A stretch of 64,000 nucleotides of DNA from Candidatus Oxydemutator sp. (lineage in GTDB: Bacteria > Pseudomonadota > Gammaproteobacteria > Poriferisulfidales > Oxydemutatoraceae). Location of the stretch: assembly GCA_965203445.1 (NCBI GenBank), contig OZ241883.1, positions 608,001-672,000 of the forward strand, in the 5' to 3' direction. The translations under genes were made by a program, and so were the position numbers. Shown piece after piece: positions 1-64,000 of the stretch (its first letter is position 1; each line of letters begins with the position of its first letter). The notes beneath the pieces are model-generated. The model searched no databases. It had not been told where the DNA came from and saw nothing but the letters and a program-made list of their open reading frames with translations.

Positions 1-3000
1 ATAACGTGGCCGTTGCCTTCAAAAACGGCGCCGTAAGGATTCCTCAAACGGTGCGCGAGCGTGGTGGCCTCTCCGCCTATCGGCTTCCAGTTCAAGCCGG
101 ACAGATCCAGGTCGGCCGACAACTCGTAGCCAGCGCACGTGCTGGGACAGGTCTGCCCGTCGCCGAAAAAGGGAAACGCCGCCAGATAAGCGGCCTCGTC
201 GGCACTGCTCACGCCCGCTATCCCGGCACCGCCCAGGTCGTGGCGGATCGCCGCCAACTGCGACGTCGTCGCCACCTCTATCAAGGTGTCGTCATCAAAG
301 TCGTAGTCTATCTCGTCGCTCGCCCCGATCGTGGTCCTGACGGGAACCGGCACGCCCAGACTCACGCGCGCGGGCACCCCGGTGAGCCTCGCGCCCGTCA
401 ACGTTACCACCAGCACCTCGGAAAACTCAGGCACGTCGTCATCGAGCACTGTCACCGAAAACGACGCGCTGACGGCGCCCGAGGCGATGACCACGCTGCC
501 TGCGGTCGTGCCGACAAAGTCGTCGGCGCCGACGTCGCCGCCCACCGCCCAATCCCAACGCGCGCGCACCCCCGCCGGCAAGACCAGCGGCAAGCGCACC
601 ACGTACCTCGCGGTGCCGCCTTCCGATACGGTAACGCTGCCGGTGAGCGCCGCCGCAAGAATTACCTGCGGCTGCGCCTGCTGCTGCGACGTGCGACGCG
701 CCACCTGCGTGTCGGTAGCGCCGCCGAACACCAGCACCGGGTAATCAAACACGCTGCCGAAATCCCACGGCGCGTCGTCGTTGTAGTCGTCGTCACCCCC
801 CTGATCCACGCCGTCCACGTTCAACCTGTCCCAGCCTTCGTAGAGGGTGCCCGCGGCCGTGGTCGGGACGCGCAACTGGCTCGACGTCTTCGAGGTGTCG
901 TCCGAACTCGGCGCATTCGTTCCTCCGCAGCATCTGCTCTGGCCGCTGCGCTCGGCGTCAAAATAGCTTGCCTGTAGCGTACCGGAACCATAGCCTCCGA
1001 CCAGACCGCCGGACGGAAACCCTTGCAGGCCGTCGCCGTCCCTGGTCAGCCTCGAGAGCGCGTAGCTGGCGCTGACTATGCCCCCGTTCACAACGACGCC
1101 TATCAACCCCCCCACGTTTTGCCCCCGCGACCGCTGATGCACCGGCACGTCCGCATAACTGGCAACTACGACACCCCCGTCCAATCTCCCTACCAGACCG
1201 CCCAAGTCCCAACCACCGCGCACTTGTCTGCCGTCGCCCACCACGTAACACGCCGCCACTTTGCCCGCGTTGTACCCCGCCAACGCGCCCGCCCCTACGC
1301 TTCTGCTGGCCACGTCCGTATGCACGTTGTTCAAACCCACGTTGCGGATCCTGCCTGTGACGCCCACGGCACCAAAAAAGCCCACGCTATCGAAGCGGGC
1401 GGTTGCATTGTTCGTGCTGCGGATCGTTACGTTGCTGATGACGTGGCCGTTGCCTTCAAAAACGGCCTGGTAACGCCGCTCCGGGGGAACGTAGTTCCAG
1501 GGGGCGCGTGTAATCCCCCCGCCTATCGGCGTCCAGTTCGGTACGTCGGACAGATCCAGGTCGGTCGACAACTCGTAGCCGGTGCACGTGCTGGGACAGG
1601 TCTGCCCGTCGCCGAAAAAGGGAAACGCCGCCAGATAAGCGGCCTCGTCGGCACTGCTCACGCCCGCTATCCCGGCACCGCCCAGGTCGTGGCGGATCGC
1701 CGCCAACTGCGACGTCGTCGCCACCTCTATCAAGGTGTCGTCATCAAAGTCGTAGTCTATCTCGTCGCTCACCTCGATCGCGGTCCTGACGGGAACCGGA
1801 ACGCCCAGACTCACGCGCGCGGGCACCCCGGTGAGCCTCGCGCCCGTCAGCGTTACCACCAGAATCTCGGAAAACTCGGGCACGGCGTCATCGAACACTG
1901 TCACCGAAAACGACGCGCTGCTCGCGCCGGAACCAATGACTACGATGCCGGTCGTGCCGACAAAGTCGGCGACGTCGGCTTCGCCGCCGCCCACGACCCA
2001 ATCCCAACGCGCGCTCACCCCCGCCGGCAAGGCCAGAGGCAAACTCACCACGTAACTCGCCGCCTCGCCTTCCGACACCGTCGCGCTGCCGGCGAGCGTC
2101 GCCGCAAGAATTACCTGCGGCTGCGCCTCCCGCTGCGACGTGCGACGCGCCGCCTGCGTCTCGGTAGCGCCACCGAACACCAACACCGGGTAATCGAACA
2201 CGCTGCCGAAGTCCCACGGCGCGTCGTCGTTGTAGTCGCCGTCGTCCCCCTGATCCACGTCGTCCACGTGCAACTTGTCCCAACCCGCGTAGAGGGTGCC
2301 CACCGCGGTGGTCGGCGCGCGCAACTGGTGTGACGCCCTCGGTTTGCAGCAACCACCCTGGCGACTGCGCTCCCGGTCAAAATAACTGGACTCCACCACG
2401 GCGCCGGCCACCCGGTTCCCTATCAAACCGCCAATCGGGTAAATCCCCGTCACTCTCCCGACGGAGTAGCTGGCGCTCACCACCGACGCGCCACCGGCTT
2501 CGCCTATCAGACCGCCCACGTTAGCTCCATCTGCACGCACTTCCACGTCGGCGTAACTCGCCACCAGCCTGCCGGCGTAATGACCCCCTATCAAACCGCC
2601 CACCCCCGCATTGCCGGATACGCGACCGCCAATGACGTAACTCGCCAACACTTCGCCCTCGTTGTCTCCCACCAGCGCACCTATAAACAAGCTGTCACCA
2701 CCCATTTCCACCCGCGCGTTGTGCAAGCCCACGTTGCGGATCACGCCGCCGGCGCCCACCCTGCCGAACAAACCTATCTGCCACTCCCCGTCCCTGGCCA
2801 CGCGCAAATTGCGGATGACGTGGCCGTTGCCTTCAAAAACGGCGGTGTAAGCATCCCCCGGCACGGCACGCGGAACCCCCCCGCCCAGCGGCGTCCAGCC
2901 TGGGCCCGGGGCCGGGTTCACGCTGGACAGATCCAGGTCGGCCGACAACTCGTAGCCGGCGCACGTTCCGGGACAGGTGCGCGTCTCGTCATACAGGGGA

Positions 3001-6000
3001 AACGCCGCCCGATAAGCCCGATAAGCGGCCTCGTTGGCACTGCTCACGCCCGCTATCCCGGCACCGCCCAGGTCGTAGCGGATCGCCGCCAACTGCGACG
3101 TCGTCGCCACCTCTATCAAGTTGTCGTCGTCAAAGTCGTAGTCTATCCGGTCGCTCACCTCGATCGTGGTCCTGACGGCAACCACGCCCAAACTCACGCG
3201 CGCGGGCGCCCCCGTGAGCCGCGCGCCCGTCAGCGTTACCACCAGTACCTCGGAAAACTCGGGCACGTCGTCATCGAACACCACCACCGAAAACGACGCG
3301 CTGACGGCGCCCGAGGCGATGGCCACGCTGCCGGTCGTGGCGACAAAGTCGGCGGCGCCGGCTTCGCCACCGCCCACGACCCAATCCCAACGCGCGCTCA
3401 CCCCCGCCGGCAAGACCAGCGGCAAACTCACCACGTAACTCGCGGTGCCGCCTTCCGACACCGTCTCGCTTCCGGCAAGCGTCGGCGCAAGAATTACCCG
3501 CTGCGCCTGCTGCTGCGACGTGCGGCGCGTCGCCATAGTCTCGGTAGCGCCGCCGAACACCAGCACCGGATAATCAAACACGCTGCCGAAATCCCACGGC
3601 GCGTCGTCGTTCAAATCGCCGTCGTCCGCCCGAGCCACGCCGTCCACGTTCAACCTGCTCCAACCCGCGTAGATGGTGCCCGTCGCCGTCGTCGGGACGC
3701 GCAACTGGTTCGACGTCTTCGAGCTGTTGTCCGGACTCGGCACGTTCGATCCGCAGCAGTCACTCTGGCCGCTGCGCTCGGCGTCAAAATAACTCGACCC
3801 CACCACGGCGCCGACTCTCCTGTTCCCTATCAAGCCGCCGACTATACCGCTCCCCGTCGTTGCCCCGACCGAGTAACTGGCGCTCACCACCGACACGGCG
3901 CCGGCCTCGCCCACCAGACCGCCCGCGTTAGCTCCATCTGCATGCACTTCCACGTCGGCGTAACTCGCCACCAACCCGCCGTAATGACCCCCTATCAGAC
4001 CGCCCACCGCCCATACGCCGGATATGCGACCACCACTGACGTAACTCGCCGCCACCTTGCCTTCGTTGCGGCCCACCAGCGCTCCTATATAAGTGCTATG
4101 GGCACCCACGGACACCCGCGCGTTGCGCAAGCCCACGTTGCGGATCACGCCGACGGCGCTCACCGCGCCGAACAAGCCCGCGTGAGACCGCTGTCCATCG
4201 CTGATCACCCGCAAATTGCTGACGACGCGGCCGTTGCCTTCAAAGACGGCGGTGTAATAATGCTCCTCCTGAAGGGTTTCGACCCCGCCGCCTAACGGCG
4301 TCCAGCCCGCACCCGGAGCCGGGTTCACGCTGGACAGATCCAGGTCGGCCGACAACTCGTAGCCGGTGCACGTGCTCGGACAGGTCTGCGGCGCGCCGAA
4401 AAGGGGAAACGCCGCAAAATAAGCGGACTTGTTCGCACTGCTCACGCCCGCCAGCCCGGCACCGCCCAGGTCATAGCGGATCGCCGCCAACTGCGACGTC
4501 GTCGCCACCTCTATCAGGGTGTCGTCGTCCTCGTCGTAGTCTATCCCGTCGCTGAACTCGATCGTGGTGCTGACGGGAAGCGGCACGCCCAAACCCACGT
4601 GCGCGGGCGCCCCCGCGAGCCTCGCGTTGCTCAACGCAACCACCATGACCTCGGGCGGTTCGATCTCGCCGTCGGCGCGCACCCTCAACGAAAACGACGC
4701 GCTGGCGGTGCCGGATGTGATGACCACGCTGCCCGCGGTGGTGCCGACAAAGTCGTCGGCGTCGACTTCGCCGCCGCCCACCGACCAATTCCAACTCGCG
4801 CTCGCCCCCGCCGGCAAGACCACCGGAAAGCGCACCACGTAACTCGCGATCCCACCTTCCGGCCCCGTCGCGCTGCCGGCGAGCGTCGGCACAAGAATTA
4901 CCCCCTGCGCCTGCTGCTGCGACGTGCGACGCATCGCCTTCGTCTCGGTAGCGCCGGCGAACACCAACACCGGATAATCAAACACGGTGCCGAAATCCCA
5001 CGGCGCGTCGTCGTTCAAGTCGCCGTCGTCTCCCTGATCCACGTCGTCCACGTTCAACTGCTCCCAGCCCTCGTAGATGGTGAGCGCGGCCGCGGTCGGA
5101 CTGAACAACTCGGCTGAGGTCTTCGAGGTGTTGTCCGGACTCGGCGGATTCCTTCCGCAGCAGCTGCTCTGGCCGCTGCGCTGGCCGTCGAAATAACTCG
5201 ACTGCAACACGTCGGCGTAATTCAGCAGCAGATGATCGTCGTGATACTCGTGCCCTCCTATCAAACCGCCGACCGCGGCCGTCCCCATCGTTGCCCCGAT
5301 GGAATAACTGGCGCTCACCACCGACGCGGCGGCGACTTCGCCTACCAGACCGCCCGCGTTCAATCTACCTGAAAATGTCTCACCTGGAGGCACCAATCCG
5401 ATACCTGCCTGCACTTCCACGTCGGCGTAACTCGCCACCAAGCTGCCGTAATGACCCCCGATCAAACCGCCCACCCCAAATACGCCGGATATGCGACCGC
5501 CACTGACGTAACTCGCCGCCACTTTGCCCTCGTTGCGGCCCACCAGCGCACCTATATAAGTGCTACCACTATCATCCAGGTTCACCCGCGCGTTGCGCAA
5601 GCCCACGTTGCGGATGATGCCGTTGGCATTCACGGCCCCGAACAGACCCATGTGCCACCACCGCCCATCCCTGTCCATCCTCAGGTTGCTGATGACGTGG
5701 CCGTTGCCTTCAAAAACCGCGGTGTAATAATAATCCGCCGGAGCTCCGTCCCAGCATACACGCGTGCCCCTCGACTGCCGGGTAACGCAAGAGCGATAAT
5801 CCTGCGGAAAGGCACCATCATTAGGAATCTCATCACTGCCGCCCCCGCCTATCGGCGTCCAGTCCAGGATGCTCGACAGATCCAGGTCGGCCGACAACTC
5901 GTAGCCGGTGCACGACGCCCCCGGACAGGTTTGCGTCTCATCGAAAAAGGGAAACGCCGCCCGATAAGCGGGCCGATCCTCGCTGCTCACGCCCGCCAGC

Positions 6001-8925
6001 CCGGCACCGCCCAGGTCGTGGCGGATCGCCGACAACTGCGACGTCGTCGCCACCTCTATCAGGGTGTCGCCGTCGAGGTCGTAGTCTCTGCCGACTCCGT
6101 CGCTGGGACTGATCACGGTGCTGACGGAAGCCGGCACGCCCAAACTCACGCGCGCGGGCGCCCCCGTGAGCATCGCGTCGCTCAACGCGACCACCATGAC
6201 CTCGGACAACTCGGTAATGACGTCATCGCGCACCCTCACCGAAAACGACGCGCTGCTCGCGCCGGATGCGATGACCACGCTGCCGCTGGTCCTGCCGTCA
6301 AAGTCGTCGGCGATGACCTGGTTGCCGCCCACCGCCCAATTCCAACTCGCAGTCACTCCCGCCGGCAAGGCCCCCGGAAAACGCACCACGTAACTCGCGG
6401 CCTCGCCTTCCGACACCCCCGCGCTCCCGGCGAGCGTCGGCGTAAGACTTACCTCCGGCTGCGTCTCCCGTTGCGCCTCCCGCTGCGACGTGCGACGCGC
6501 CACCTCCGTCTCGGTAGCACCGCCGAACACCAGCACCGGGTAATCAAACTCGGTGCCAAAATCCCACGGAGCGTCATCGTTCAAATCGCCGTCGCTGCCC
6601 TGATCCACGTCGTCCACGTTCAACTTGTCCCAACCGGCGTAGATGGTGCCCGTCGCCGTGATCGGGAGAATCATGTCGCTCGACGTCTTCGCAACAACGT
6701 CGTCCAGACCGAATTCATTCGTTCCGCAGCAACTGCTCCGGAGGCTGCGCTCCTTGTCAAAATAACTCGACTCCACCGCGGCGATGATGGTCACCCCGAA
6801 CTGTCCGCCACCCGCGGTGGCAACCCGCCGCCCTATCAAGCCGCCGACTCTGCTACCCCCCGTCGTTTTCCCGACGGAGTAACTGGCGCTTACCACCGAC
6901 GCGACACTGGCTTCGCCTACCAGACCGCCCACCTCACCTATACTTGCATGCACTTCCACGTCGGCGTAACTCGCCACCAACCTGCCGGAGTTGCCCCCTA
7001 TCAAGCCGCCCACCCTGAATGAACCGGATATGCGACCGCCACTGACGTAACTCGCCGCCACTTTGCCCCGGTTGCGCCCCACCAGCGCTCCCACGTAGAT
7101 GTGTCCTACGGCCACCTGCGCGTTGCGCAAGCCCACGTTGCGGATTCTGCCGTCGGCGCCGACGATGCCGAACAAACCCGTGCCATACACCCCGCCGCCG
7201 CTCATCCGCAGGTTGCTGATGACGTGGCCGTTGCCTTCGAAAACAGCGGTGTAAGCATCCGGCGTATCCCCCCCGCCTAGCGGCGTCCAGTCCGCTATGT
7301 CGGACAGGTCCAGGTCGGCCGACAACTCATAGCCGATGCACGCGCGCGGACAGCTCGCCTCATCAAAAAAGGGAAACGCCTTCCGATAAGCGACGTTGTT
7401 CGTATCGCTCACGCCCGTCACCCCGGCACCGCCCAGGTCGTAGCGAATCGCCGCCAACTGCGACGTCGTCGCCACCTCTATCAAGGTGTCGTCATCAAAG
7501 TCGTAGTCTATCTCGTCGCTCACCTCGATGGTGGTCCTGACGGGAAGCGGCACGCCTAAACTCACGCGCGCGGGCACTCCCGTGAGCCTCGCGCCCGTCA
7601 ACGTTACCACCAGAACCTCGGAAAATTCGGGCACGTCGTCATCAAACACTACCACCGAAAACGACGCGCTGACGGCGCCGGATGCGATGACCACGTCGCC
7701 GCTGGTCGCGCCGACAAAGTCGTCGGTGCTGACTTCGCCACCCACCGCCCAATTCCAACTCGCACTCACCCCCGCCGGCAAGGACTCCGACAAGCTCACC
7801 ACGTAACTCGCGGTGCCGCCTTCCGACACGGTCTCGCTTCCGATGAGCGTCGGTGCAAGACTTACCTGCGGCTGCGCCTGCTGCTGCGACGTGCGACGCG
7901 CCGACTCCGTGTCGGTAGCGCCGCCGAACACCAGCACCGGGTAATCAAACGCGCTGCCGAAATCCCATGGAGCGTCGTCGTTGTAGTCGTCGTCGCCCCC
8001 CTGATCAACGTCGTCCACGTTCAACTTGTCCCAACCGGCGTAGATGGTGCCCGTCGCCGTGATCGGGAGAATCATGTCGCTCGACGTCTTCGCAACAACG
8101 TCGTCCAGACCATGCGCGTTCGTTCCGCAGCAACTGCTCCGGAGGCTGCGCTCCTTGTCAAAATAACTCGACTCCACCGCGGCGATGATGGTCACCCCGA
8201 ACTGTCCGCCACCCGCGGTGGCAACCCGCCGCCCTATCAAGCCGCCGACTCTGCTACCCCCCGTCGTTTCCCCGACGGAGTAACTGGCGCTTACCACCGA
8301 CGCGACACTGGCTTCGCCTACCAGACCGCCCGCCTCACCTAAACTTGCATGCACTTCCACGTCGGCGTAACTCGCCACCAACCTGCCGGAGTTGCCCCCT
8401 ATCAAGCCGCCCACCCTGAATGAACCGGATATGCGACCGCCACTGACGTAACTCGCCGCCACTCTGCCCCGGTTGCGCCCCACCAGCGCTCCCACGTAGA
8501 TGTGTCCTACGGCCACCTGCGCGTTGCGCAAGCCCACGTTGCGGATTCTGCCGTCGGCGCCGACGATGCCGAACAAACCCGTGCCATACACCCCGCCGCT
8601 GCTCATCCGCAGGTTGCTGATGACGTGGCCGTTGCCTTCGAAAACAGCGGTGTAAGAATCCGGCGTATCCCCCCCGCCTAGCGGCGTCCAGTCCGCTATG
8701 CTGGACAGATCCAGGTCGGCCGACAACTCGTAGCCGGCGCACGTGCCCGGACAGGTCTCCATCTCGTCGTACAGGGGAAACGCCGCCCGATAAGCCCGAT
8801 AAGCGGCCTCGTTGGCACTGCTCACGCCCGCCAGCCCGGCGCCGCCCAGGTCGTGGCCGATCGCCGCCAACTGCGACGTCGTCGCCACCTCTATCAAGTT
8901 GTCGTCGTCAAAGTCGTAGTCCACG
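1..8925 (-). repeat. Array of at least 7 beta-helix/Calx-beta modules (~1.4 kb) in gene A
   Basis: DYDxDxDxLIEV caps at ~8920, 7510, 6086, 4540, 3143, 1757 and 308. Confidence 0.85.
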
Positions 8926-9587: not shown

Positions 9588-9613
9588 CCCCCCCCCCCCC
9601 CCCCCCCCCCCCC
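9587..9613 (-). repeat. Poly-G tract (G27) at the start of gene A; candidate phase-variation switch, OFF as assembled
   Basis: 27 consecutive C on the + strand. ATG 9615-9613 reads M-G9-A-TAG. Confidence 0.9.
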
Positions 9614-9815
9614 ATCACTGGACCGCCGAGCGTTCACGCTTTCGCGCACTTTCCCGTGACCGGCGGCAACGCGTTGGGAGCAGTCGCTTGCGACAAGATG
9701 GATGCAGGTGCGCCCGATACGGACGGCACGTGCCTAAGGCCAGGGAAATGAGATACCATGCTAATAGGGAACTATAGGCTATATGCCCTGATCCATGAAA
9801 ATGGGCGATTGGGGA

Positions 9816-9824
9816 ATTATATCA
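9816..9824 (-). promoter_or_regulatory. Putative extended -10 promoter (TGATATAAT) for gene A
   Basis: Perfect TGnTATAAT in an AT-rich island, identical in the second intergenic copy; no good -35 at 17 bp spacing. Confidence 0.55.
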
Positions 9825-9906
9825 AGCAGTTAGATCAATTCCATTCCGACTCCTGACAAATAAATACAAGTTATTGTTCCCCCTTGCTTTTATAATCATT
9901 CCGGGA

Positions 9907-9925
9907 AATGACCAAGCCGGCCATT
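9907..9925 (-). terminator. Possible weak terminator or stabilising hairpin after the gene B stop
   Basis: AATGGCC-GGCTT-GGTCATT stem directly after TAG with only a short U run; pairing retained via G-U in copy 2. Confidence 0.25.
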
Positions 9926-9927
9926 GC

Positions 9928-10720
9928 CTAATGCACCGAAAACGTCCTGCGCCGACCCTTGTTCTCTATCACGAAATACCGATCGGCGGACAACACCTCG
10001 CCGTCAAAGTCCACGTCCGCGTCCACCGCGTAATGGCCGGCCGCGGCCGCGGCGCGGTAGTCGGCCACGCCCAGCGACGTCAGGTTGTACACGCGTATCA
10101 ATACCTCGTCTCGCTCATCAATCACGCCGTTTCGATCCACGTCGCCCGCGACCATCGCATACCTGCCTGCCCCCACTGCGATCTGCCCGTCCCCGTGCGA
10201 CTGCCCGACGCGAAAGTCCACGCAGTAGTCCGCCTCGCAATCGGCGCCCGTGGTCGCGGCCGCCGGCACCGCCGACATCACCGGCAGATGGTTGCGGTGG
10301 TGGATCAGCACGTACAGGTGCTCGCCTTCGGGCGGCTTCAGCTCAAAGCGCACGCCGTCCAATGACAGCGCGTCCGCCACCGACGACGCCGCCTCGTTTA
10401 TCCCGGCGATGCGACCGTCGCTCAACAGCAGACCCGCGGCGCGACCGCCCGTCGACGGCCGCGACGACGCGGCCGCGGTCGTGCTCTGGCCGGTGCGCAA
10501 CTCCACCAGCACCCAGTCCACTATCGTCGAGGTTACCCCGGCCAGGCCAACCGCCGCGCCCGCGTGCGGCACCGTCGTCGTCACCGGGTGCCCCCACGGC
10601 AACGCGCCGTACGGCTGGCGCCTCGGCAACAAGTTTGCCAAGTCGCTCCTCATGCGGCGGGTTTCGGCAAGCAACGCCCCCTGCAAAACCACTCGCGCGT
10701 CCACCACTACGACCCTCTCG
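9928..10720 (-). other. Conserved C-terminal domain of B with dockerin/EF-hand-like Ca-binding loops
   Basis: VVLQG, QPY, VDWVLVELR, HHRNHL motifs, then GDVDRNGVIDERD and DADVDFDGEVLSAD. Confidence 0.65.
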
Positions 10721-36972: not shown

Positions 36973-37172
36973 CACAAACCGCCGAGCGTTCACGCTTTCG
37001 CGCACTTTCTCGTGACCGGCGGCAACGCGTCGGGAGCAGTCGCTTGCGACAAGATAGATGCAGGTGCGCCCGATACGGACGGCACGCGCCCTAAGGCCAG
37101 GGAAAGGAAATACCATGCTAGTAGGGAACTGTAGGCTATACGCCCTGATCCATGAGAATGGGCGATTGAGGA

Positions 37173-37181
37173 ATTATATCA
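37173..37181 (-). promoter_or_regulatory. Putative extended -10 promoter (TGATATAAT) for gene B
   Basis: Same motif at the homologous position, ~200 nt upstream of ATG 36972. Confidence 0.55.
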
Positions 37182-37263
37182 AGCAATTAGATCAATTCCA
37201 TTCCGACTCCTGACAGATGAATACAAGTTATTGTTCTCTCTTACTTTTATAATCATTACAGGA

Positions 37264-37282
37264 AACGACCAAGCCGGCCATT
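37264..37282 (-). terminator. Possible weak terminator or stabilising hairpin after the gene C stop
   Basis: AATGGCC-GGCTT-GGTCGTT, homologous to 9907-9925. Confidence 0.25.
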
Positions 37283-37284
37283 GC

Positions 37285-38077
37285 CTAATGCACCGAAAAC
37301 ATCCTGCGCCGACCCTCGTTCTCTATCACGAAATACCGATCGGCGGACAACACCTCGCCGTCAAAGTCCACGTCCGCGTCCACCGCGTAATGGCCGGCCG
37401 CGGCCGCGGCGCGGTAGTCGCCCGCACCCAACGACGACAAGTTGTACACGCGTATCAATACTTCGTCCCGTTCATCAATCACGCCGTTTCGATCCACGTC
37501 GCCCGCGACCATCGCATACACGCCCGCCCCCACTGCAATCTGCCCGCCCCCGTGCGACTGCCCGACGCGGAAGTCCACGCAGTAGTCCGCCTCGCAACCG
37601 GCGCCCGTGGTCGCGGCCGCCGGTATCGCCGACATCACCGACAGATGGTTGCGGTGGTGGATCAGCACGTACAGGTCCTCCCCTTCGGACAGCTCCGCCT
37701 CAAAGCGCACGCCGCCCAATGACAGCGCGTCCGCCACCGACGACGCCGCCTCGTTTATCCCCACGATGCGACCGTCGCTCAACAGCAGACCCGCGGCGCG
37801 ACCGCCCGTCGGCGGCCGCGACGACGCGGCCGCGGTCGTGTTCTGGCCGGTGCGCAACTCCACCAGCACCCAGTCCACTATCGTCGAGGTGACACTGGCC
37901 AGGCCGACCGCCGCGCCCGCGTGCGGCACCGTCGTCGTCACCGGGTGCTCCCACGGCAACGCGCCGTACGGCTGGCGCCTCGGCAACAGACCCGCCAAGT
38001 CGCTCCTCATCCGACCGGCCCCGGCAAGCAACGCCCCCTGCAAAACCACTCGCGCGTCCACCACTACGACCCTCTCG
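37285..38077 (-). other. Conserved C-terminal domain of C with dockerin/EF-hand-like Ca-binding loops
   Basis: Same motifs as in B; ends RRRMFSVH. Confidence 0.65.
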
Positions 38078-62000: not shown

Positions 62001-64000
62001 CGTTGTGCAAGCCCACGTTGCGGATCACGCCGACGGCGCTCACGGCGCCGAACAGACCCATGTGATACGACGCCCCGTCCCTGGTCATCGTCAGATTGCT
62101 GATGACGTGGCCGTTGCCTTCAAAAACGGCGCTGTAATAATCCGCATCCCTCAGCGCATCCCTCAGCCTCAGCCCCGTACGGGAGTAATCGGTGTCCCCA
62201 CCCAGCGGCGTCCAGTTCAAGCCGGACAAGTCCAGATCGCTCGACAACTCGTAGCCGGTGCACGTGCTCGGACAGGTCTGCAACGCGCCGAAAACGGGAA
62301 ACGCCGCAAAATAAGCGGATTTGTTAGTCTTGCCCACGCCCGCTATCCCGGCACCGCCCAGGTCATAGCGTATCGCCGCCAACTGCGACGTCGTCGCCAC
62401 CTCTATCAGGGTGTCGTCGTCCTCGTCGTAGTCTATCCCGTCGCTGAACTCGATCGTGGTGCTGACGGGAAGCGGCACGCCCAAAGCCACGCCCTCCGGC
62501 GCCCCCGCGAACCTCGCGTCGCTCAACACAATCGCGATGACCTCGGACGGCTCGGGAACGCCGTCAGCACGCACCCTCAACGAAAACGACGCGCTGGCGG
62601 CGCCGGCTGCGATGACCACGCTGCCCGCGGTCGTGCCGACAAAGTCGTCGGCGTCGACTTCGCCGCCACCCACCGACCAATTCCAACTCGCGCTCACCCC
62701 CGCCGGCAAGGCCCCCGGCAAGCGCACCACGTAACTCGCGGTCCCGCCTTCCGGCACCACCGCACTGCCGGCGAGCGCCGGCGTAAGAATTACCTCCGGC
62801 CGCGCCTCCTGCTGCGACGTACGACGCGCCACCTCCGTCTCGGTAGCGCCGCCGAACACCAATACCGGGTAATCAAACTCGGTGCCGAAATCCCACGGCG
62901 CGTCGTCGTTCAAGTCGCCGTCGCGTCCCTGATCCACGTCGTCCACGTTCAACTGGTCCCAACCCGCGTAGATGGTGTCCGTCACCGTGGTGGGAAAAAG
63001 CAACTCGGCCGACAACCTCGGGGTGTGGTCCGGATCCGGCGAATTCCTTCCGCAGCAGCTGCTCTGGCTGCTGCGCTCTTTGTCAAAATAACTGGACTCC
63101 ACCACGGAACCGGTAACCCTGCTCCCTATCAAACCATTGGCCGATGCCCCCGTCGGTCTGCCGACGGAGTAACTGGCTGTCACCGTCCCCTCGGATCGGT
63201 CTGAACCCACGAGGCCGCCCGCGTTCGCCCCACCTGCATGCACTTCCACGTCGGCGTAACTCGCCACCACCTCACCGCCATTGATTCCTATCAAGCCGCC
63301 CACCGAGGTTCCGCCGGATATGCGACCGCCACTGACGTAACTCGCCGCCACTTTGCCGCCGTTGGTTCCCACCAGCGCACCGGCACTCTCGCTATCACGA
63401 CCCAGGCTCATCCGCGCGTTACGCAAGCCCACGTTGCGGATCCTGCCGCCGGCGCCCACGTTGCCGAACAGACCCACGTGAAACCATCGCCCACTCCTGG
63501 CCACCCGCAGATTGCTGATGACGTGGCCGTTGCCTTCAAAAACCGCGGTGTAAACATCCCCCGGAAGGTCTTCCAGCCTGACGCCCCCGCCTAGCGGCGT
63601 CCAGCCCGCGCCCGGCGCCGGTTCCACGTCGGACAGGTCCAGATCATTCGACAGCTCGTAGCCGGTACACGTGCTGGGACAGGTCTGCCCGTCGCCGAAA
63701 AAGGGAAACGCCGCCAGATAAGCGGCCCTGTTCGCGTCGCCGCTCACGCCCGCTATCCCGACACCGCCCAGGTCGTAGCGGATCGCCGCCAACTGCGACG
63801 TCGTCGCCACCTCTATCAAGGTGTCGTCGTCAACGTCGTAGTCTTTCGCGTCGCTCGCCTCGATGGTGGTGCTGACGGAAAGCGGCACGCCCAAACCCAC
63901 GTGCGCGGGCGCCCCCGCGAGCCTCGCGCCCGTCAACGTTACCACCAGGGCCTCGGACAACTCGGACACGCCGTCTGCGCGCACTGCCACCGAAAACGAC
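37285..64000 (-). CDS. Giant repeat protein C (partial, >8,900 aa): at least 18 GLUG-like beta-helix/Calx-beta modules, terminal Calx-beta, C-terminal dockerin-like domain; putative adhesin
   Basis: ORF 37285-63990 starts mid Calx-beta domain and the frame is open to the window edge, so the true start is upstream. C-terminus is highly similar to that of B. Confidence 0.93.
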   Translation of the reverse strand, partial: SFSVAVRADGVSELSEALVVTLTGARLAGAPAHVGLGVPLSVSTTIEASDAKDYDVDDDTLIEVATTSQLAAIRYDLGGVGIAGVSGDANRAAYLAAFPFFGDGQTCPSTCTGYELSNDLDLSDVEPAPGAGWTPLGGGVRLEDLPGDVYTAVFEGNGHVISNLRVARSGRWFHVGLFGNVGAGGRIRNVGLRNARMSLGRDSESAGALVGTNGGKVAASYVSGGRISGGTSVGGLIGINGGEVVASYADVEVHAGGANAGGLVGSDRSEGTVTASYSVGRPTGASANGLIGSRVTGSVVESSYFDKERSSQSSCCGRNSPDPDHTPRLSAELLFPTTVTDTIYAGWDQLNVDDVDQGRDGDLNDDAPWDFGTEFDYPVLVFGGATETEVARRTSQQEARPEVILTPALAGSAVVPEGGTASYVVRLPGALPAGVSASWNWSVGGGEVDADDFVGTTAGSVVIAAGAASASFSLRVRADGVPEPSEVIAIVLSDARFAGAPEGVALGVPLPVSTTIEFSDGIDYDEDDDTLIEVATTSQLAAIRYDLGGAGIAGVGKTNKSAYFAAFPVFGALQTCPSTCTGYELSSDLDLSGLNWTPLGGDTDYSRTGLRLRDALRDADYYSAVFEGNGHVISNLTMTRDGASYHMGLFGAVSAVGVIRNVGLHNARVELAAGVLGGGGDGGNQVGALVGRNEGKVAASYVIGGRVSGEEVVGGLVGGNFGVVVASYADAEVYIESGPTGGGLVGGSIVGSVVSASYSVGATTGRIDPSDNIARGMPSGLIGIKAIAAVVESSYFDTGRSGQSRCCGNSVPSPDNTPQTSNQLRAPTTAAGTIYAGWDQLNVDDVDQTGDDDLNDDAPWDFGTVFDYPVLVFGGATETMAMRRTSQQEAQPAVILAATLTGSVTVSEGEAASYVVSLPEALPTGASVRWDWVVGGGEAGIADFVGTTGVVVIGSGASSASFSVEVFDDAIPELSEVMVVTLSSAMPTGAPARARLGVPVSVRTAVEASDQMDYDRDDDTLIEVATTSQLAAIRYDLGGAGLAGVSSANEAAYRAYLAAFPFFGENETCPSTCTGYELSADLDLSAIPDWTPLGGGVRLEDFPGDFYTAVFEGNGHVISNLRVIGGGRRYHVGLFGAVGADGTVRNVGLRNARVGPLGSDSTYAGALVGRNEGTVAASYVIGGHISGASGVGGLIGDHRGRLVASYADVEVHADGSSVGGLVGEGRAASVVSASYSVGATTGSGTVGGLIGNRVAGAVVESSYFDAERSGLSGCCGSNPPSPDKTSKTSSQLRVPTTAAGTIYEGWDQLNVDRVDQGGDDDYNDDAPWDFGSAFDYPVLVFGGATETEMARRTSQREAQPQVSLAAALTGSVTVSEGEVASYVVRLPEALPTGASVRWHWEVGGGEVGDDDFVGATSGSVVIASGAVSASFSVTVLDDAVPEPSEVLVVTLSSAMPTGAPARARVGVPISVRTTIEASDQIDYDDDNDTLIDVATTSQLAAIRHDLGGAGIAGVSSADEAAYLAAFPFFGDGQTCPSTCTGYELSTDLDLSDVPNWTPIGGGITRAPWNYVPPERRYQAVFEGNGHVISNVTIRSTNNATARFDSVGFFGAVGVTGRIRNVGLNNVHTDVASRSVGAGALAGYNAGKVAACYVVGDGRQVRGGWDLGGLVGRLDGGVVVASYADVPVHQRSRGQNVGGLIGVVVNGGIVSASYALSRLTRDGDGLQGSPSGGLVGGYGSGTIQASYFDEGRSGQSDCCGNNRPTTDTAPRTSAQLRAPTAAAGTIYEGWDRLNVDGVDQGRDGDYNDDAPWDFGTTFDYPVLVFGGATDTQAARRTSQQQAQPQVILAPTLAGSATVSEGGTASYVVRLPEVLPTGVSASWSWAVGGEVDIADFVGTTAGNVVIEAGASSASFLLIVRADGEPELSEVLVVTLTDARLTGAPAHVSIGVPVSVRTTIELSDGTDYDDDDDTLIEVATTSQLAAIRYDLGGAGITGVVGKANRLAYFAAFPVFDEKQTCPSTCTGYELSADLDLSSVEPAPGAGWTPLGGGGDSLLDNYYTAVFEGNGHVISNLRVARGGRLSHTGLFGAVSAVGTVRNVGLRDARVSLGDHSTYIGALVGRNEGKVVASYVSGGRISGVWAVGGLIGGNYGRLVASYADVEVHAGGANAGGLVGEAGGASVVSASYAVGAATGNDKVGGLIGNRRVGGVVESSYFDVERSLRASCCGTNPGDLNNFAPKTSSQLRAPTTAAGTIYEGWDKLNVDRVDQGRDGDYNDDAPWDFGSVFDYPVLVFGGATDTQVARRTSQQRTQPRVSLAPTLAGSATVSEGEVASYVVRLPEVLPTGVTVSWSWTVGGDVGAADFVGTTAGSVVIGSGAVSASFSVTVLDDAVPELSEVLMVTLTGARLTGAPARGVSFGVPVSVRTTIELSDGTDYDDDNDTLIDVETTSQLAAIRYDLGGAGITGVGKTNKSAYFAAFPFFDAKQTCPSTCTGYELSADLDVSSVNPAPGAGWTPLGGGGDSLLDNYYTAVFEGNGHVVSNLRVARGGRLSHAGLFGAVGAGGVIRNVGLRNARVSVGDHSTFIGALVGRNDGEVAASYVSGGRISGVWGVGGLIGGHYGRLVASYADVEVHADGGTVGGLVGQAFVPSVVSASYSVGKPTGNTVGGLLGQRAVGAVVESSYFDVERSLRAGCCGTNPGDLNNVAPKTSSKLRVPTTAAGTIYEGWDKLNVDRVDQGRDGDLNDDAPWDFGTVFDYPVLVFGGATDTRQARRTLQQQAQGVILAPTLVGSATVPEGGTASYVVSLPEVLPAGVSASWNWAVGGVDVDAADFVGTTAGSVVIESGAVSASFSVRVFDDAVPELSEVLVVSLTGARLTGAPARVGVGVPVSVRTAIELSDGTNYDTDGDTLIEVRTTLQLAAIRHDLGGAGIAGVSDTNRANYFEAFSFFDEKQTCPSTCTGYELSADLDLSGIPDWTPIGGGIRRGSLPGNFYTAVFEGNGHVVSNLRVNRPGQRWYNVGLFGAVGAGGRIRNVGLRDARIFLGLESVYTGALVGRNEGKVAASYVIGGLIDGVHEIGGLIGGNFGRVVASYADVEVFAPRSAGGGLVGLGGAASVVSASYSVGRTAGWRTVAGLIGQHSDNTAVVESSYFDRERSGQSRCCGTYPPSPDNTSKTSNELRVPITATGTIYAGWDKLNVDDVDQGDDGDYNDDAPWDFGSVFDYPVLVFGGATETMAMRRTSQRQAQPQVSLAPTLTGSATVPEGGTASYVVSLPLVLPAGVSASWNWSVGGDEVDGDDFVGATTGSVVIESGTVSASFSVKVRDDDAPELSEVLMIALTGARLTGAPARVSVGVPAAVMTTIEFSDGIDYDDDNDSLIEVATTSQLAAIRHDLGGAGIAGVGKTNKSDYFAAFPVFGALQTCPSTCTGYELSNDLDLSGVDWTPLGGGARAVQPGNVPPVGIRYRAIFDGNGHVIRNVRIRSPSRNWHFVGLFGALGEAGWVRNVGLRDVEVEVQGGYGGSTGTAALVGYSYGRVAASYVSGGSVRGGWEVGGLVGANGGTLIASYADVSVAATERSLGGLVGRMLGSGVVSASYSVGRVLTSAGPRSVGGLVGGRSGSSVLSASYFDSERSGQSRCCGERVPGTDDAPKTSSELRTPTTATGTIYEGWDQLDVDGVDQGRDGDYNDDAPWHFGTVFDYPVLVFAGATATTVARRASQIEAQQTVTLRGSATVAEGETAEYTVGVPIEVPRPVTVSWVVAAVAGSDGAMPGDFRAGATATTALADFPTGTAIIMTGSSRTTFSVHVFDDQNAENPERFQVSVNLVADAGAEVALRSALPLVTTIEVSAGTDYDVDDDTLIEVETTSQLAAIRYDLGGVGPAGVSAANEEDYYAAFPFFDEARTCPSTCTGYELSADLDLSSIPDWTPLGGGVETLLEEDYYTAVFEGNGRVISNLRVARDGQFSHAGLFGAVSAVGVIRNVGLRNARVSLGAHSTYIGALVGRNDGQVAASYVSGGRISGASAVGGLIGDHRGRLVASYADVEVHAEESNVGGLVGEAGGASVVSASYSVGRPTGGTVGGLIGNRRVGAVVESSYFDRERSGRSRCCGTNPPTPDDASKASVELFFPTTAAGTIYEGWNQLNVDAVDQGDDGDYNDDAPWDFGGAFDYPVLVFGGSTETVQARRTSQRQAQRIILTPTLAGSETVSEGEVASYVVSFPMALPAGVATSWSWVVGGGEVGSADFVGTTAGSVVITSDVVSASFSVRVFDDAIPEFSEVLVVTLTGARLTGAPARVTSGVVSMMTTIEFSDGTDYDTDGDALIEVTTRSQLDAIRHDLGGAGLAGVSGDANRSAYLAAFPFFDERRTCVNTCAGYELSNDLDLSGMDWTPIGGGTRVRTRNNVPPAGIRYQGVFEGNGHVIRNMRIRSPSRPWHYVGLFSTLGGDGRVRNVGLRDVVVDVQGGREGSLGTGALVSFSYGQVAASYVSGGSVRGGSWVGGLMGVNLGTLVASYADVSVAGTDRSLGGLAGGMSGSGVVRASYSVSRVLPGEDSRSVGGLVGGRSRRSVLSASYFDSERSGQSRCCGERVPSTDNAPKTSSELRVPIAAAGTIYEGWDQLDVDRVDQGRDGDYNDDAPWHFGTVFDYPVLVFGGATATMVARRASQLGAQQTVTLRGSATVAEGETAEYTVGVPIEVPRPVTVSWVVAAVAGSDGAMPGDFRAGATATTALADFPAGTAIIMTGSSRTTFSVHVFDDQGAEDPERFQVDASIVADAGAELALRGALPSVTTIEASAGTDYDADADGLIDVETTSQLAMIRHDLGGVGPAGVGSANRAAYYAAFPFFDEKRTCPSTCTGYELSGDLDLSDVADWTPIGGGLGVEYPVDYYTAVFEGNGRVISNLTMTGDGQRYHVGLFGAVGADGAIRNVGLRNARVDLGHSSTYTGALVGRNEGKVAASYVIGGRVSGASRVGGLIGGHYGSLVASYADVEVHAEGSNAGGLVGEAGGASVVSASYSVGVTTGTATAGGLIGNRVVGAVVESSYFDAERSGLSRCCGTNVPTTDTAPRTSSQLRVPTTTAGTIYAGWDQLNVDGLDRGRDGDLNDDAPWDFGSVFDYPVLVFGGATDTEAARRTLQREAQPAVSLAPTLTGSETVSEGGTASYVVRLPQALPPGVRARWDWSVGGGEVDADDFVGVTASSVAIESGAVSASFSLRVRVDGEPELSEVLVVTLTGARLTGAPARVSLGVPLSVRTIIEASDETIYNGDGDTLIDVETTSQLAAIRYDLGGVGPAGVSDANRAAYYAAFPFFDEKRTCPSTCTGYELSNDLDLSDVADWTPIGGGSGVEYPVDYYTAVFEGNGRVISNLRVTGDGQRYHVGLFGAVGAVGTIRNVGLRNARVVLGHSSTYTGALVGRNEGKVAASYVSGGRVSGASRVGGLIGGHYGSLVASYADVEVHAEESDAGGLVGEAGGASVVSASYSVGVTTGTATVGGLIGNRVVGAVVESSYFDAERSGLSRCCGTNAPSSDDTSKTSSELRVPTTTAGTIYEGWDQLNVDGVARGRDGDLNDDSPWDFGSVFEYPVLVFGGSTETMQARRTLQREAQPAVSLAPTLAGSETVSEGGTASYVVRLPQALPPGVRVRWDWSVGGGEVDADDFVGVTASSVAIESGAVSASFSVAVFDDDAPELSEVLVVTLTGARLTGAPARGVDLGMPVSVRTIIEASDETIYNGDGDTLIDVETTSQLAAIRYDLGGVGPAGVSSANRAAYYAAFPFFDEKRTCPSTCTGYELSADLDLDSIADWTPIGGGSGVEYPVDYYTAVFEGNGRVISNLTMTGNGQRYHVGLFGAVGADGAIRNVGLRNARVDLGRSSTYSGALVGRNEGKVAASYVIGGRVSGAFGVGGLIGGHYGSLVASYADVEVQAEESNAGGLVGEAGGASVVSASYSVGVTTGTATAGGLIGNRVVGAVVESSYFDAERSGLSRCCGTNAPSSDTAPKTSSELRVPTTTAGTIYAGWDQLNVDGLDRIGDGDLNDDAPWDFGSVFEYPVLVFGGSTETMQARRTLQREAQPAVSLAPTLAGSETVSEGGTASYVVRLPQALPPGVRASWDWSVGGGEVDIADFIGVTASSVAIESGAVSASFSVGVFDDDEPELSEVLVVTLTGARLTGAPARVSLGVPLSVRTTIEASDETIYNGDGDTLIDVETTSQLAAIRYDLGGVGPAGVGKTNKSAYYAAFPFFDEKRTCPSTCTGYELSGDLDLSDVADWTPIGGGSGVEAPVDYYTAVFEGNGHVISNLTMATDGQRYHVGLFGAVGADGAIRNVGLRNARVDLGRSSTYTGALVGRNEGKVAASYVSGGRISGASRVGGLIGGHYGSLVASYADVEVHAEESNAGGLVGEAGGASVVSASYSVGVTTGTATAGGLIGNRVVGAVVESSYFDAERSGLSRCCGTNAPSPDDTSKTSSELRVPTTTAGTIYAGWDQLNVDGLDRIGDGNLNDDSPWDFGSVFDYPVLVFGGATDTEAARRTSQREAQPAVSLAPTLTGSETVSEGGTASYVVRLPQALPPGVRARWDWSVGGGEVDADDFIGATTGNVAIVSGAVSASFSVGVFDDDEPEFSEVLVVTLTGARLTGAPARGVDLGMPLSVRTIIEASDETIYNGDGDTLIDVETTSQLAAIRYDLGGVGLAGVSSANRAAYYAAFPFFDEKRTCPSTCTGYELSADLDLDSIADWTPIGGGSGVEYPVDYYTAVFEGNGRVISNLTMTGNGQRYHVGLFGAVGAGGAIRNVGLRNARVVLGRSSTYTGALVGRNEGKVAASYVIGGRISGASGVGGLIGGHYGRLVASYADVEVHAEGSNAGGLVGEAGGASVVSASYSVGVTTGTATVGGLIGNRVVGAVVESSYFDAERSGLSRCCGTNAPSSDDTSKTSSELRVPTTTAGTIYAGWDQLDVDGLDRGRDGNLNDDAPWDFGSVFEYPVLVFGGSTETVQARRTSQREAQPAVSLAPTLAGSETVSEGGTASYVVRLPQALPPGVRASWDWSVGGGEVDAADFVGTTAGNVVIVSGAVSASFSVGVRDDDAPEFSEVLVVTLTGARLTGAPARGVDLGMPVSVRTIIEASDETIYNGDGDTLIDVETTSQLAAIRYDLGGVGPAGVSSANKAAYYAAFPFFDEKRTCPSTCTGYELSNDLDLSDVADWTPIGGGSGVEYPVDYYTAVFEGNGRVISNLRVTGDGQRYHVGLFGAVGAVGTIRNVGLRNARVVLGHSSTYTGALVGRNEGKVAASYVSGGRVSGASRVGGLIGGHYGSLVASYADVEVHAEESDAGGLVGEAGGASVVSASYSVGVTTGTATVGGLIGNRVVGAVVESSYFDAERSGLSRCCGTNAPSSDDTSKTSSELRVPTTTAGTIYEGWDQLNVDGVARGRDGDLNDDSPWDFGSVFEYPVLVFGGSTETMQARRTLQREAQPAVSLAPTLAGSETVSEGGTASYVVRLPQALPPGVRVRWDWSVGGGEVDADDFVGVTASSVAIESGAVSASFSVTVFDDDAPELSEVLVVTLTGARLTGAPARGVDLGMPVSVRTIIEASDETIYNGDGDTLIDVETTSQLAAIRYDLGGVGPAGVSSANRAAYYAAFPFFDEKRTCPSTCTGYELSNDLDLSDVADWTPLGGGSGVEAPVDYYTAVFEGNGRVISNLTMTGNGQRYHVGLFGAVGADGAIRNVGLRNARVVLGRSSTYTGALVGRNEGKVAASYVSGGRISGASGVGGLIGGHYGSLVASYADVEVHAEESNAGGLVGEAGGASVVSASYSVGVTTGTATVGGLIGNRVVSAVVESSYFDAERSGLSRCCGTNAPSSDDTSKTSSELRVPTTAAGTIYAGWDQLDVDGLDRRGDGDLNDDSPWDFGSVFDYPVLVFGGATDTEAARRTSQREAQPAVSLAPTLTGSETVSEGGTASYVVRLPQALPPGVSVRWDWSVGGGEVDADDFVGVTASSVAIVSGAVSASFSVGVRDDDEPEFSEVLVVTLTGARLTGAPARGVDLGMPVSVRTIIEASDETIYNGDGDTLIDVETTSQLAAIRYDLGGVGLAGVGKTNKSAYYAAFPFFDEKRTCPSTCTGYELSGDLDLSDVADWTPIGGGSGVEYPVDSYTAVFEGNGRVINNLTMTGNGQRYHVGLFGAVGAAGVIRNVGLRNARVDLGRSSTYTGALVGRNEGKVAASYVIGGRISGASGVGGLIGGHYGGLVASYADVGVHAEESNAGGLVGEAGGASVVSASYSVGVTTGTATAGGLIGNRVVGAVVESSYFDAERSGLSRCCGTNAPSSDDTSKTSSELRVPTTTAGTIYAGWDQLNVDGLDRGRDGDLNDDAPWDFGSVFDYPVLVFGGSTETMQARRTSQREAQPAVSLAPTLAGSETVSEGGTASYVVRLPQALPPGVSVRWDWSVGGGEADADDFIGVTASSVVIESGAVSASFSLRVRVDGEPELSEVLAVTLTGARLTGAPARVVLGVPSTVARTTIEANELSQVTVAATSATVSESTTATFTIALSGGGDRAVVVDYEIAAASEGLTHEDLAAVHVAGRGAAGVRSVVSLPFTGSVVLNEAGVARIEVGVPSDGIGDEGRERFRLRLTGCPNCVTHLAELGTPSFADVGIFSERVVVVDARVVLQGALLAGAGRMRSDLAGLLPRRQPYGALPWEHPVTTTVPHAGAAVGLASVTSTIVDWVLVELRTGQNTTAAASSRPPTGGRAAGLLLSDGRIVGINEAASSVADALSLGGVRFEAELSEGEDLYVLIHHRNHLSVMSAIPAAATTGAGCEADYCVDFRVGQSHGGGQIAVGAGVYAMVAGDVDRNGVIDERDEVLIRVYNLSSLGAGDYRAAAAAGHYAVDADVDFDGEVLSADRYFVIENEGRRRMFSVH
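38480..64000 (-). repeat. Array of at least 18 beta-helix/Calx-beta modules in gene C; the last 8 are near-identical with a 1392-1395 bp period
   Basis: 18 caps counted in the translation. Marker GTTGTAGAT at 39853, 41248, 42643, 44038, 45433, 46825 and 48220. Confidence 0.88.

Follow-up and report, generated by a model that had tools for sequence, protein, structure and literature searches.

Six abutting giant genes in a Candidatus Oxydemutator genome: candidate phase-switched, recombining surface proteins

INTRODUCTION

What is encoded, and perhaps varied, by a stretch of bacterial DNA that three enormous reading frames on one strand fill between them? The question is raised by a window of 64,000 nucleotides (nt) in the genome of Candidatus Oxydemutator sp. 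(Gammaproteobacteria; GenBank assembly GCA_965203445.1, contig OZ241883.1), which is the whole stretch of DNA analyzed here and covers genome positions 608001 to 672000; coordinates are those of the window unless given as genome positions. A first-pass annotation of the letters alone had described an array of giant surface-protein paralogs with ON/OFF switches, stalks of variable length, and shuffled modules. The window is the middle of a row of six paralogs, genes A to F, and the explanation that we favor, with confidence only slightly above even, is an array of phase-switched, recombining giant surface proteins. The six genes would encode giant, Sec-exported, calcium-binding modular surface proteins, each in four parts: a signal-peptide-like start, a stalk of 2 or 48 PKD domains, 6 to 33 modules, and a C-terminal dockerin-like end. 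The array would have grown via tandem duplication of modules and multi-module blocks, and frequent gene conversion within and between paralogs would have made most modules patchworks. Genes A and B each have at the start a private 312-nt upstream block with an extended −10-like element and a G tract of 25 to 27 nt fused to the ATG. Slipped-strand mispairing may alter the length of this tract at very high frequency and so move the ATG into frame (as for B in the assembly) or out of it (as for A), and cells of one population would then show different subsets and lengths of these proteins.

RESULTS

Six giant paralogs abut head to tail

The genome is a single contig of 2,378,814 bp, rated 100% complete; the window has a G+C content of 66% across its length and a steadily negative GC skew. 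Three open reading frames (ORFs), all on the minus strand (3 to 9587, 9928 to 37116, and 37285 to 63999), together fill it, of which the first, a part of gene A with 3,195 codons, leaves the window at the low end and the third, a part of gene C, at the high end. In a whole-genome ORF survey, D, E, and F adjoined A to C without a gap, and extension along the contig thus turned the at least three co-oriented paralogs that had been proposed into six abutting head-to-tail genes at genome positions 569222 to 727874 (about 159 kb). From stop to stop they comprise 16,130 (A), 9,081 (B), 10,540 (C), 3,521 (D), 9,139 (E), and 4,326 (F) codons. More giant genes lie at genome positions 763 to 891 kb and elsewhere, and the 23 named giant ORFs total 163,882 codons, or 20.7% of the genome. 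The parts of the three genes inside the window, all on the minus strand, are as follows.

1 to 9587: gene A, first 3,195 codons (whole gene, 16,130 codons, genome positions 569222 to 617614)
8925 to 9587: gene A, signal-peptide-like start and two PKD domains; the start reads MRSLLLLLGLSVAATVSA/QE if GTG 9587 initiates
312 to 8924: gene A, modules A01 to A06, from the module hidden Markov model (HMM)
1 to 311: gene A, cut module A07, from the module HMM
9928 to 36972: gene B, complete ORF, 9,014 codons from ATG 36972; stop at 9928 to 9930
22411 to 36885: gene B, 48 K319L-like PKD domains, by domain count
11104 to 22410: gene B, modules B01 to B08, from the module HMM
9931 to 11103: gene B, shared C-terminal region with a Calx-beta-like domain, a conserved domain of about 230 amino acids (aa), and a dockerin-like EF-hand pair
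37285 to 64000: gene C, last 8,904 of 10,540 codons; stop at 37285 to 37287
63847 to 64000: gene C, cut module C03
38470 to 63846: gene C, modules C04 to C21, with C14 to C21 a tandem run of units 90 to 99% identical
37288 to 38469: gene C, shared C-terminal region

A long G tract adjoins the ATG of genes A and B

The two gene starts inside the window and the sequences before them, again on the minus strand, are as follows.

9616 to 9927: intergenic block upstream of A, 312 nt, 51% G+C
36973 to 37284: intergenic block upstream of B, a second copy 93% identical to the first
9824 to 9816 (A block) and 37181 to 37173 (B block): extended −10-like element TGATATAAT, identified by eye about 200 nt before the ATG
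9587 to 9615: gene A start, ATG at 9615 to 9613 and G tract of 27 G at 9613 to 9587, including the G of ATG and that of GTG
36938 to 36972: gene B start, ATG at 36972 to 36970 and 25-G tract at 36970 to 36946, then TGCGTGCG at 36945 to 36938

Only two homopolymers of at least 10 nt were found in the window, C27 at 9587 to 9613 and C25 at 36946 to 36970 of the plus strand, which are on the coding strand the G tracts directly after the ATG. The block upstream of them has exactly two copies in the genome, with a G+C content of about 51% against 66% in the window, and was absent from the 18 other genomes of the family that were searched. Both junctions therefore do carry the same block and a poly-G-at-ATG tract (G27 and G25), as had been noted at first. 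The D-to-C and E-to-D junctions measure only 66 nt and are without the block, so that C and D may be cotranscribed with upstream genes. The leader had no Rfam match at an E value of ≤1 and folded no better than its shuffles (z = 0.47).

The two ATG codons stand in different frames. In gene A, the frame opened by the ATG has 11 codons, M-G9-A, before a TAG stop; the GTG at 9587 to 9585 is the codon that shares the frame of the long ORF. In gene B, the ATG is in frame with the ORF (MGGGGGGGGCVRSLLLLL...). A 4-nt TGCG duplication directly 3' of the G tract of B (36938 to 36945), relative to A, sets this ATG in frame, and indels adjoining the tract thus also set the frame, beside tract length. Genes C and D have G8 at the same place (ATG GGG GGG GTG CGT, in frame), from which we conclude that the tract expanded in A and B. 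Since paralog F reads GAGGGG-c-ATG CGT AGC at the aligned place, where A to D read G(n)-GTG CGT AGT, the tract probably arose from a G-rich stretch that served for ribosome binding, and translation could credibly start at the GTG instead.

Several observations weigh against a frame switch. GTG 9587 and its equivalents in B, C, and D align with the ATG of F, and a canonical signal peptide is obtained from the GTG alone. Because a GTG past the tract could initiate, as it could in the congener genome G001 (where it is accompanied by a G-rich stretch after the tract), the tract may lie in the leader, where the frame would be irrelevant. A promoter scan with a stricter rule passed 0 sites in the 312-nt block. 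The homopolymer lengths of 25 to 27 may be off by one base in the assembly, which makes the assignment of A as off and B as on fragile, and Logan contigs from four runs stopped at 9576 and resumed at 9624, with none spanning 9590 to 9618. The claim of an ON/OFF switch thus keeps its footing in the two frames of A and B and in the long tracts near starts across the family (see below), and loses some of it to an ambiguous start codon and to a GTG that gives a normal signal peptide.

These data bear on an alternative that we hold to be unlikely, in which the GTG is the start and the G run is a leader or Shine-Dalgarno tract, acting as a rheostat on initiation or mRNA fate, or via a short upstream ORF (uORF) opened by the ATG, that tunes expression and does not toggle it. 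The aligned sequence of F, the resemblance of the GTG-started MRSLLLLLGLSVAATVSA/QE to a normal signal peptide, and the ATG frame of A, which stops 2 codons past the GTG like a uORF, are all as this alternative would have it; the G run that touches the start codon in C and D is not, as it leaves no normal Shine-Dalgarno spacing. Against a rheostat also stands the in-frame ATG in three of four genes (C, D, and, via the 4-nt duplication, B), a count weakened by the near identity of C and D. For the sabA adhesin gene of Helicobacter pylori, a rheostat-type repeat has been described (PMC4081817, in the part of the paper accessible).

Two runs gave weak matches only. Run X3, from another study, yielded one 151-nt contig identical over 9624 to 9770, and run X5, labelled as a sponge metagenome, yielded three contigs 90 to 95% identical on the coding flanks; neither is evidence on habitat or strain.

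Long G/C tracts recur in the genome and the family

The genome contains 17 homopolymers of at least 10 nt, all of them G or C, and 13 of at least 13 nt. Five of these 13 lie at the 5' ends of module-bearing genes (20 ORFs), namely, A, B, H, and two genes at 2.32 Mb; others lie in or beside genes for a GNAT acetyltransferase, a HAD-like protein, a GT4/GT1 glycosyltransferase, and a 2-oxoglutarate oxygenase. Examples are found at genome positions 81736, 359212, 793242, 1381142, 1480509, 1824504, and 1918062. An assignment of the tract-bearing gene at 359212 as a GT25 glycosyltransferase was dropped, as it had no Pfam support. At genome positions 1381142 to 1381235, directly after a gene for a Schlafen/AlbA_2-HATPase protein, G25 and C28 form an inverted pair 41 nt apart, which by its sequence could make a long G:C hairpin.

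Tracts of at least 16 nt occurred in 10 of 19 family genomes and four of six genera (this genome and genus counted). They numbered 69 in the relative G004, 14 in G006, 8 in G010, 7 in G003, and 6 in G001, were 16 to 70 nt long, consisted of G/C with no A/T ones, and in fragmented assemblies stood at contig ends. At the loci examined in relatives, nearly every tract was poly-C in the sense of a long downstream ORF, and most lay just 5' of that ORF with an ATG 13 to 47 nt upstream, in some cases in frame and in more cases out of frame. Three of the six tracts of G001 precede giant genes (3,241, 2,003, and 3,230 codons). In G001 and in gene H, a sigma-70-like promoter precedes the tract and a plausible start follows it, in line with a tract in the leader.

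A paralogous set in G004 (L014, L019, L024, and L073) starts with MKRQ(V/I/T)FNT, followed by a 17- to 24-nt C tract and a hydrophobic stretch, and looks like a family of tract-switched secreted proteins. The ATG of this set lies 22 to 25 nt before the tract and begins a coding-looking N terminus (MKRQxFNT...) that is in frame in two of seven loci, a pattern that a frame switch would produce and that counts against a leader tract.

Tract length differed among paralogous loci with conserved flanks in six sets (paralogs being compared here and not strains): 27, 25, 8, and 8 nt in A, B, C, and D; 13 and 19 nt at genome positions 2324554 and 2328499; 21 and 45 nt in G001; 19 and 26 nt, and 16 and 18 nt, in G006; and 22 and 16 nt in G004. 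Tracts therefore change length over evolutionary time. That they also slip within populations is what the favored explanation would predict.

An assembly artefact, in which the array would be misjoined or miscounted and the G tracts or their lengths would be sequencing errors, is in our judgment very improbable. The region is highly repetitive, homopolymers this long are error prone on every platform, and short-read-type contigs break at the tract. Yet no exact repeat in the array exceeds 1,334 nt and just eight reach 500 nt, lengths that long reads should span; the giant ORFs are all open over up to 48 kb; and each variant of the junction block had a contig of its own in two runs, with similar depths for the two (16.8 and 9.5 in one, 7.2 and 9.9 in the other). 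Against an artefact also stand the tracts with conserved flanks on both strands in 10 of 19 family genomes, placed at contig ends in fragmented assemblies.

Paralogs share their ends and differ in the stalk

The protein of gene B starts with MGGGGGGGGCVRSLLLLLGLSVVATVSAQE and that of gene A, from its GTG, with (M)RSLLLLLGLSVAATVSAQE; read by eye, both N termini are signal-peptide-like, and the proteins would accordingly be exported. The K319L-like PKD family PF22352 matched the first 657 aa of B in Pfam (six stretches, E = 3e-79), and the whole stalk of B has exactly 48 PKD-like domains of 91 to 107 aa, in nine subtypes and with higher-order repeats. The stalks of A, C, and D have two PKD domains, which are the first and last of B's. 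As had been claimed, stalk length differs between paralogs (2 versus 48 domains) and the ends are shared, with 77 to 96% identity among A to F over the C-terminal 391 aa. Antisense to the PKD stalk of gene B run long plus-strand ORFs (for example, 21790 to 27264 and 28003 to 36921, up to 2,972 codons), which are most likely shadow frames of the G+C-rich repeats and not genes.

All 15 giant proteins that were aligned have kept the C-terminal domain of about 230 aa and two loops of the D-x-D-x-D-G type, and 46 columns of the alignment are invariant. Since at least 15 giant proteins of the genome share it, this common C-terminal domain most likely holds the giant proteins at the cell surface. Its dockerin-like character is challenged by a Dockerin_1 match of 20.4 bits (E = 6e-4), below the Pfam cutoff of 22.9, and by 0 matches to cohesin (PF00963) in the complete genome. 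The structure model of the domain was poor (predicted local distance difference test [pLDDT] score of 52). A search of NCBIfam with the domain gave nothing useful, and in the protein atlas it fell in unnamed clusters only, in one of which 15% of members carried Dockerin_1. No RTX-type family was among the Pfam matches of the C-terminal 4,114 aa or last 391 aa of B. No dedicated secretion system was found beside the arrays, the flanks being housekeeping genes such as those for AcrB, MFS, a Mur ligase, and the ISC cluster. At genome positions 838791 to 891281, a 17,496-codon ORF, larger than any other gene of the genome, contains over 120 PKD-type junction motifs and likewise has the C-terminal domain of the array proteins.

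The repeated module is a GLUG-like beta-helix with a Calx-beta domain

Each module of about 470 aa consists of a GLUG-like right-handed beta-helix, an acidic Ca-loop-like cap, and a Calx-beta domain. An HMM built from the modules of B detected 92 modules in the array (33, 8, 21, 6, 17, and 7 in A to F, respectively) and 178 near-full modules in 20 ORFs genome-wide. The window holds 32 complete modules (A01 to A06, B01 to B08, and C04 to C21) and 2 cut ones, consistent with an initial count of 33.

Module B03 was modelled with AlphaFold from an alignment of 31 in-window modules (mean pLDDT, 69). The model has a helical cap and beta-helix at about residues 10 to 256 (the helix at about 60 to 256; pLDDT mostly 75 to 94) and a beta-sandwich at 356 to 472; residues 257 to 355 were unmodelled, yet hold the invariant motifs CC, NDDxPWxFG, and YPVLVF. 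With Foldseek, the sandwich matched the Calx-beta domain 2dpk (NCX1 CBD1; E = 2e-6; template modelling score, 0.76 of target), and the helix matched 3n6z (E = 1.7e-4 over 224 columns) and also the IgA1 protease 7uvl. Calx-beta (PF03160) was also found in the Pfam scan (E = 1e-14). Invariant in the 31 modules were GLFG, IRNVGL, GGLxG (three times), and NDDxPWxFG, with helix turns at G186 G187 L188 G190, G213 G214 L215 G217, and G241 L242 G244; we take the repeated G-G-L-x-G turns to be the GLUG motif.

The GLUG family PF07581 itself was not matched at E ≤ 0.01 on pieces of 4,114 aa and 3,195 aa, nor by one module searched alone at E ≤ 1. No solved chain was found by sequence with a module profile, and, as a point against the favored explanation, no Pfam or NCBIfam model matched a single module. 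A search with B03 returned 14,770 representative proteins at E ≤ 1e-3 (1,473 at E ≤ 1e-30), many of them multi-module giants, and precomputed Pfam annotations listed PF07581 in 35 of 46 giant homologues of B03 (4,957 to 15,775 aa; E down to 0). The opinion that no described family fits was therefore half right, in that the module belongs to a widespread GLUG-type family and the architecture was not found described: the literature searched, a restricted collection, held no account of the full architecture, and the accessible part of a giant-gene survey (bioRxiv 10.1101/2023.11.21.568195) does not mention GLUG, paralog, or homopolymer.

Within the module, length varies chiefly in the loop that precedes the FEGNG motif. 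In one module type, that of A03 (4545 to 6089) and its counterparts C03, D03, and F04, this loop has a cysteine-containing insertion of about 40 aa.

Modules are mosaics within a mostly collinear order

The 92 modules of A to F were 38 to 100% identical in pairs (median, 69%). Clustering at 85% identity gave 47 types, of which 27 were singletons and 11 occurred in at least two genes, in the following order along each gene.

A: ABCDEFGHGHEIJKLMNOPKQRMSOTSSSSSOS
B: UBVWXEYZ
C: EBaWbcFdefghiSSSSSSSS
D: jBaWbZ
E: kklmhnoopqreqsntu
F: tEBaWbZ

The backbone order E-B-a-W-b-Z is found again in C, D, and F and in part in B, so that the paralogs have a collinear backbone in common, modified by insertions, by replacements, and by tandem runs (as of type S at the 3' end of both A and C). 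Exact repeats of at least 100 nt numbered 382 in the array, 222 of them between genes. Patchy near-identity, defined as a 150-nt stretch at least 98% identical to a module that is less than 93% identical overall, was found in 64 of 90 modules, with donors that switch along the module; C07, for example, is 100% identical to A06 for about 550 nt and from there on follows B07. In the pairwise homoplasy index (PHI) test, with 805 informative sites, the statistic was 0.982 versus 1.088 ± 0.006 in permuted data, and 0 of 1,000 permutations were as low. Sharing and exchange between genes are thus borne out for what had been called shuffled modules from a shared pool; free shuffling is not, given the mostly collinear order and the 27 of 47 types that are singletons.

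The ratio of nonsynonymous to synonymous divergence (dN/dS) was about 0.6 to 0.7 in pairs. This is weak constraint and no proof of diversifying selection, a point against the favored explanation. By block, the ratio (pN/pS) was about 0.3 to 0.4 in the scaffold and about 0.9 to 1.2 in the loops, where constraint is thus weak and positive selection not proven.

The same data can be set against a different explanation, rather unlikely in our view, that the proteins are a structural coat or matrix under concerted evolution, i.e., very long, Ca-stiffened fibers (a sheath, spacer, or biofilm scaffold) in which mosaicism follows passively from recombination between repeats and there is neither a binding repertoire nor antigenic variation. 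Scaffold motifs invariant in all 31 aligned modules, an overall dN/dS below 1, the collinear order between paralogs, and long near-identical runs (C14 to C21 and A24 to A33) all fit a coat, as does the finding that no lectin or enzyme domain was detected in Pfam scans of the window protein pieces. A passive coat accounts less well for variation concentrated in loops and turns (pN/pS of about 0.9 to 1.2 versus 0.3 to 0.4 in the scaffold) or for an insertion-prone loop before FEGNG that varies by tens of residues, and hypermutable 5' tracts are hard to square with a constitutive coat. An adhesive role or one in antigenic variation, as first proposed, stands as a hypothesis.

Comparison with known systems

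If read correctly, the locus belongs to a known kind, the phase-variable, recombining surface-protein families, and would be a new variant of it whose function and switching we infer from sequence. With GLUG beta-helix proteins (PF07581; 3n6z, a "putative IgA1 protease" of Bacteroides ovatus; and the N-terminal part of the pneumococcal IgA1 protease, 7uvl) it shares the GGLxG turns and the fold match. It differs from them in that no module reaches PF07581 in hmmscan, that there is no peptidase domain, and that the helix is combined here with a Ca-loop-like cap and a Calx-beta domain in a module of about 470 aa, of which a gene has up to 33 copies. The GLUG family has thousands of members and no tested function and is scarcely mentioned in the literature searched.

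In classical contingency loci, tracts are roughly 6 to 15 nt long. Those of Neisseria, Haemophilus, Campylobacter, and Helicobacter resemble the present tracts as G/C homopolymers 5' of surface-protein or glycan genes, with copies in and out of frame and lengths that differ between paralogs. Here, the tracts measure 16 to 70 nt, the genes 27 to 48 kb, the lineage is uncultured, and switching is read from sequence. The Vlp/Vsa systems of Mycoplasma comprise clustered paralogs, each with its own homopolymer switch and with size variation by internal repeats; there, the poly-A tract lies in the promoter, and the products are small lipoproteins whose C-terminal repeats are short. The proposed logic of per-gene ON/OFF, variable length, and a paralog cluster would be the same, whereas here only two of six array genes have a long tract, and the repeats that gene conversion exchanges are folded modules of 470 aa in proteins of 9,000 to 16,000 aa.

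Giant adhesins with Ig-like extenders are substrates of type I secretion (T1SS/RTX) without an N-terminal signal peptide. The 1.5-MDa ice-binding adhesin of Marinomonas, as far as described in the accessible part of PMC3492233, is similar in its Ca-binding domains and in its long run of beta-sandwich domains of about 100 aa; in B, the 48 PKD domains plausibly carry distal modules clear of the cell. The adhesin differs from the present proteins, which have a signal-peptide-like N terminus, no RTX match in the pieces scanned, and many tandem paralogs. The dockerin-type giants of Omnitrophota have EF-hand/dockerin-type Ca sites and beta-helical regions, and a role in attachment has been proposed for them, according to the accessible part of bioRxiv 10.1101/2023.11.21.568195, which stresses the rarity of giant genes. 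They are alike in being giant extracellular proteins (here predicted) rich in Ca sites and beta-helix, and they differ in phylum and, in the same part of that source, in having thrombospondin type 3 and discoidin domains and a C-terminal membrane anchor with SecA-like parts. Homopolymeric tracts in contingency loci in general are surveyed in PMC2831843 (accessible in part).

If the switch and the module exchange were true, this would be extreme programmed surface variation, with genes of 27 to 48 kb toggled by tracts two to five times the textbook length, in a 2.4-Mb genome that puts 20.7% of its DNA into giant proteins. It would make the question of what the GLUG beta-helix does tractable and would bear on how small-genome uncultured bacteria manage contact with hosts or particles. 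Such loci are likely underreported, because long tracts break short-read assemblies exactly at gene starts. A bolder version, which we consider doubtful and offer tentatively, is that the family-wide G/C homopolymers of 16 to 70 nt are a stochastic switch of giant surface genes thrown in nearly every generation, with gene conversion moving modules between silent and expressed genes (92 of the 178 lying in the array); this would be a combinatorial library of a scale not described for bacteria, at the cost of a fifth of the genome.

Distribution in relatives

Within the order, 14 of 41 genomes matched in the module search (this one counted), including 12 of the 18 other genomes of the family. 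Three congeners (1.6 to 1.8 Mb) matched weakly, with an E value of about 1e-8, and carry the C-terminal domain in tandem as small separate ORFs; this array is therefore species specific among the genomes searched. In the congener G001, orthologues of the two genes that flank the array lie 273 kb apart, and synteny was uninformative. No second strain of the array was found in public genome and metagenome contigs; a 32-nt junction pattern had 0 matches in metagenome contigs, and of 115 pattern matches to the C-terminal domain in public genome contigs none was confirmed. Protein P0154 (6,497 aa, 73% identical) was set aside, as it resembles gene N and not the array.

The C-terminal domain also occurs outside giant genes. 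In the congeners G001 (L075, C1:679653-682256) and G003 (L076, C33:47464-49938), it is present as three tandem stand-alone ORFs of about 300 to 410 aa, and single or dispersed ORFs of this domain are found in two other genera, in G005 (C1:119177 [L074], 1505087-1505872, and 1545073) and G006 (C1:1614565 [L077] and 1626391). These stand-alone ORFs might be partners or precursors of the anchor.

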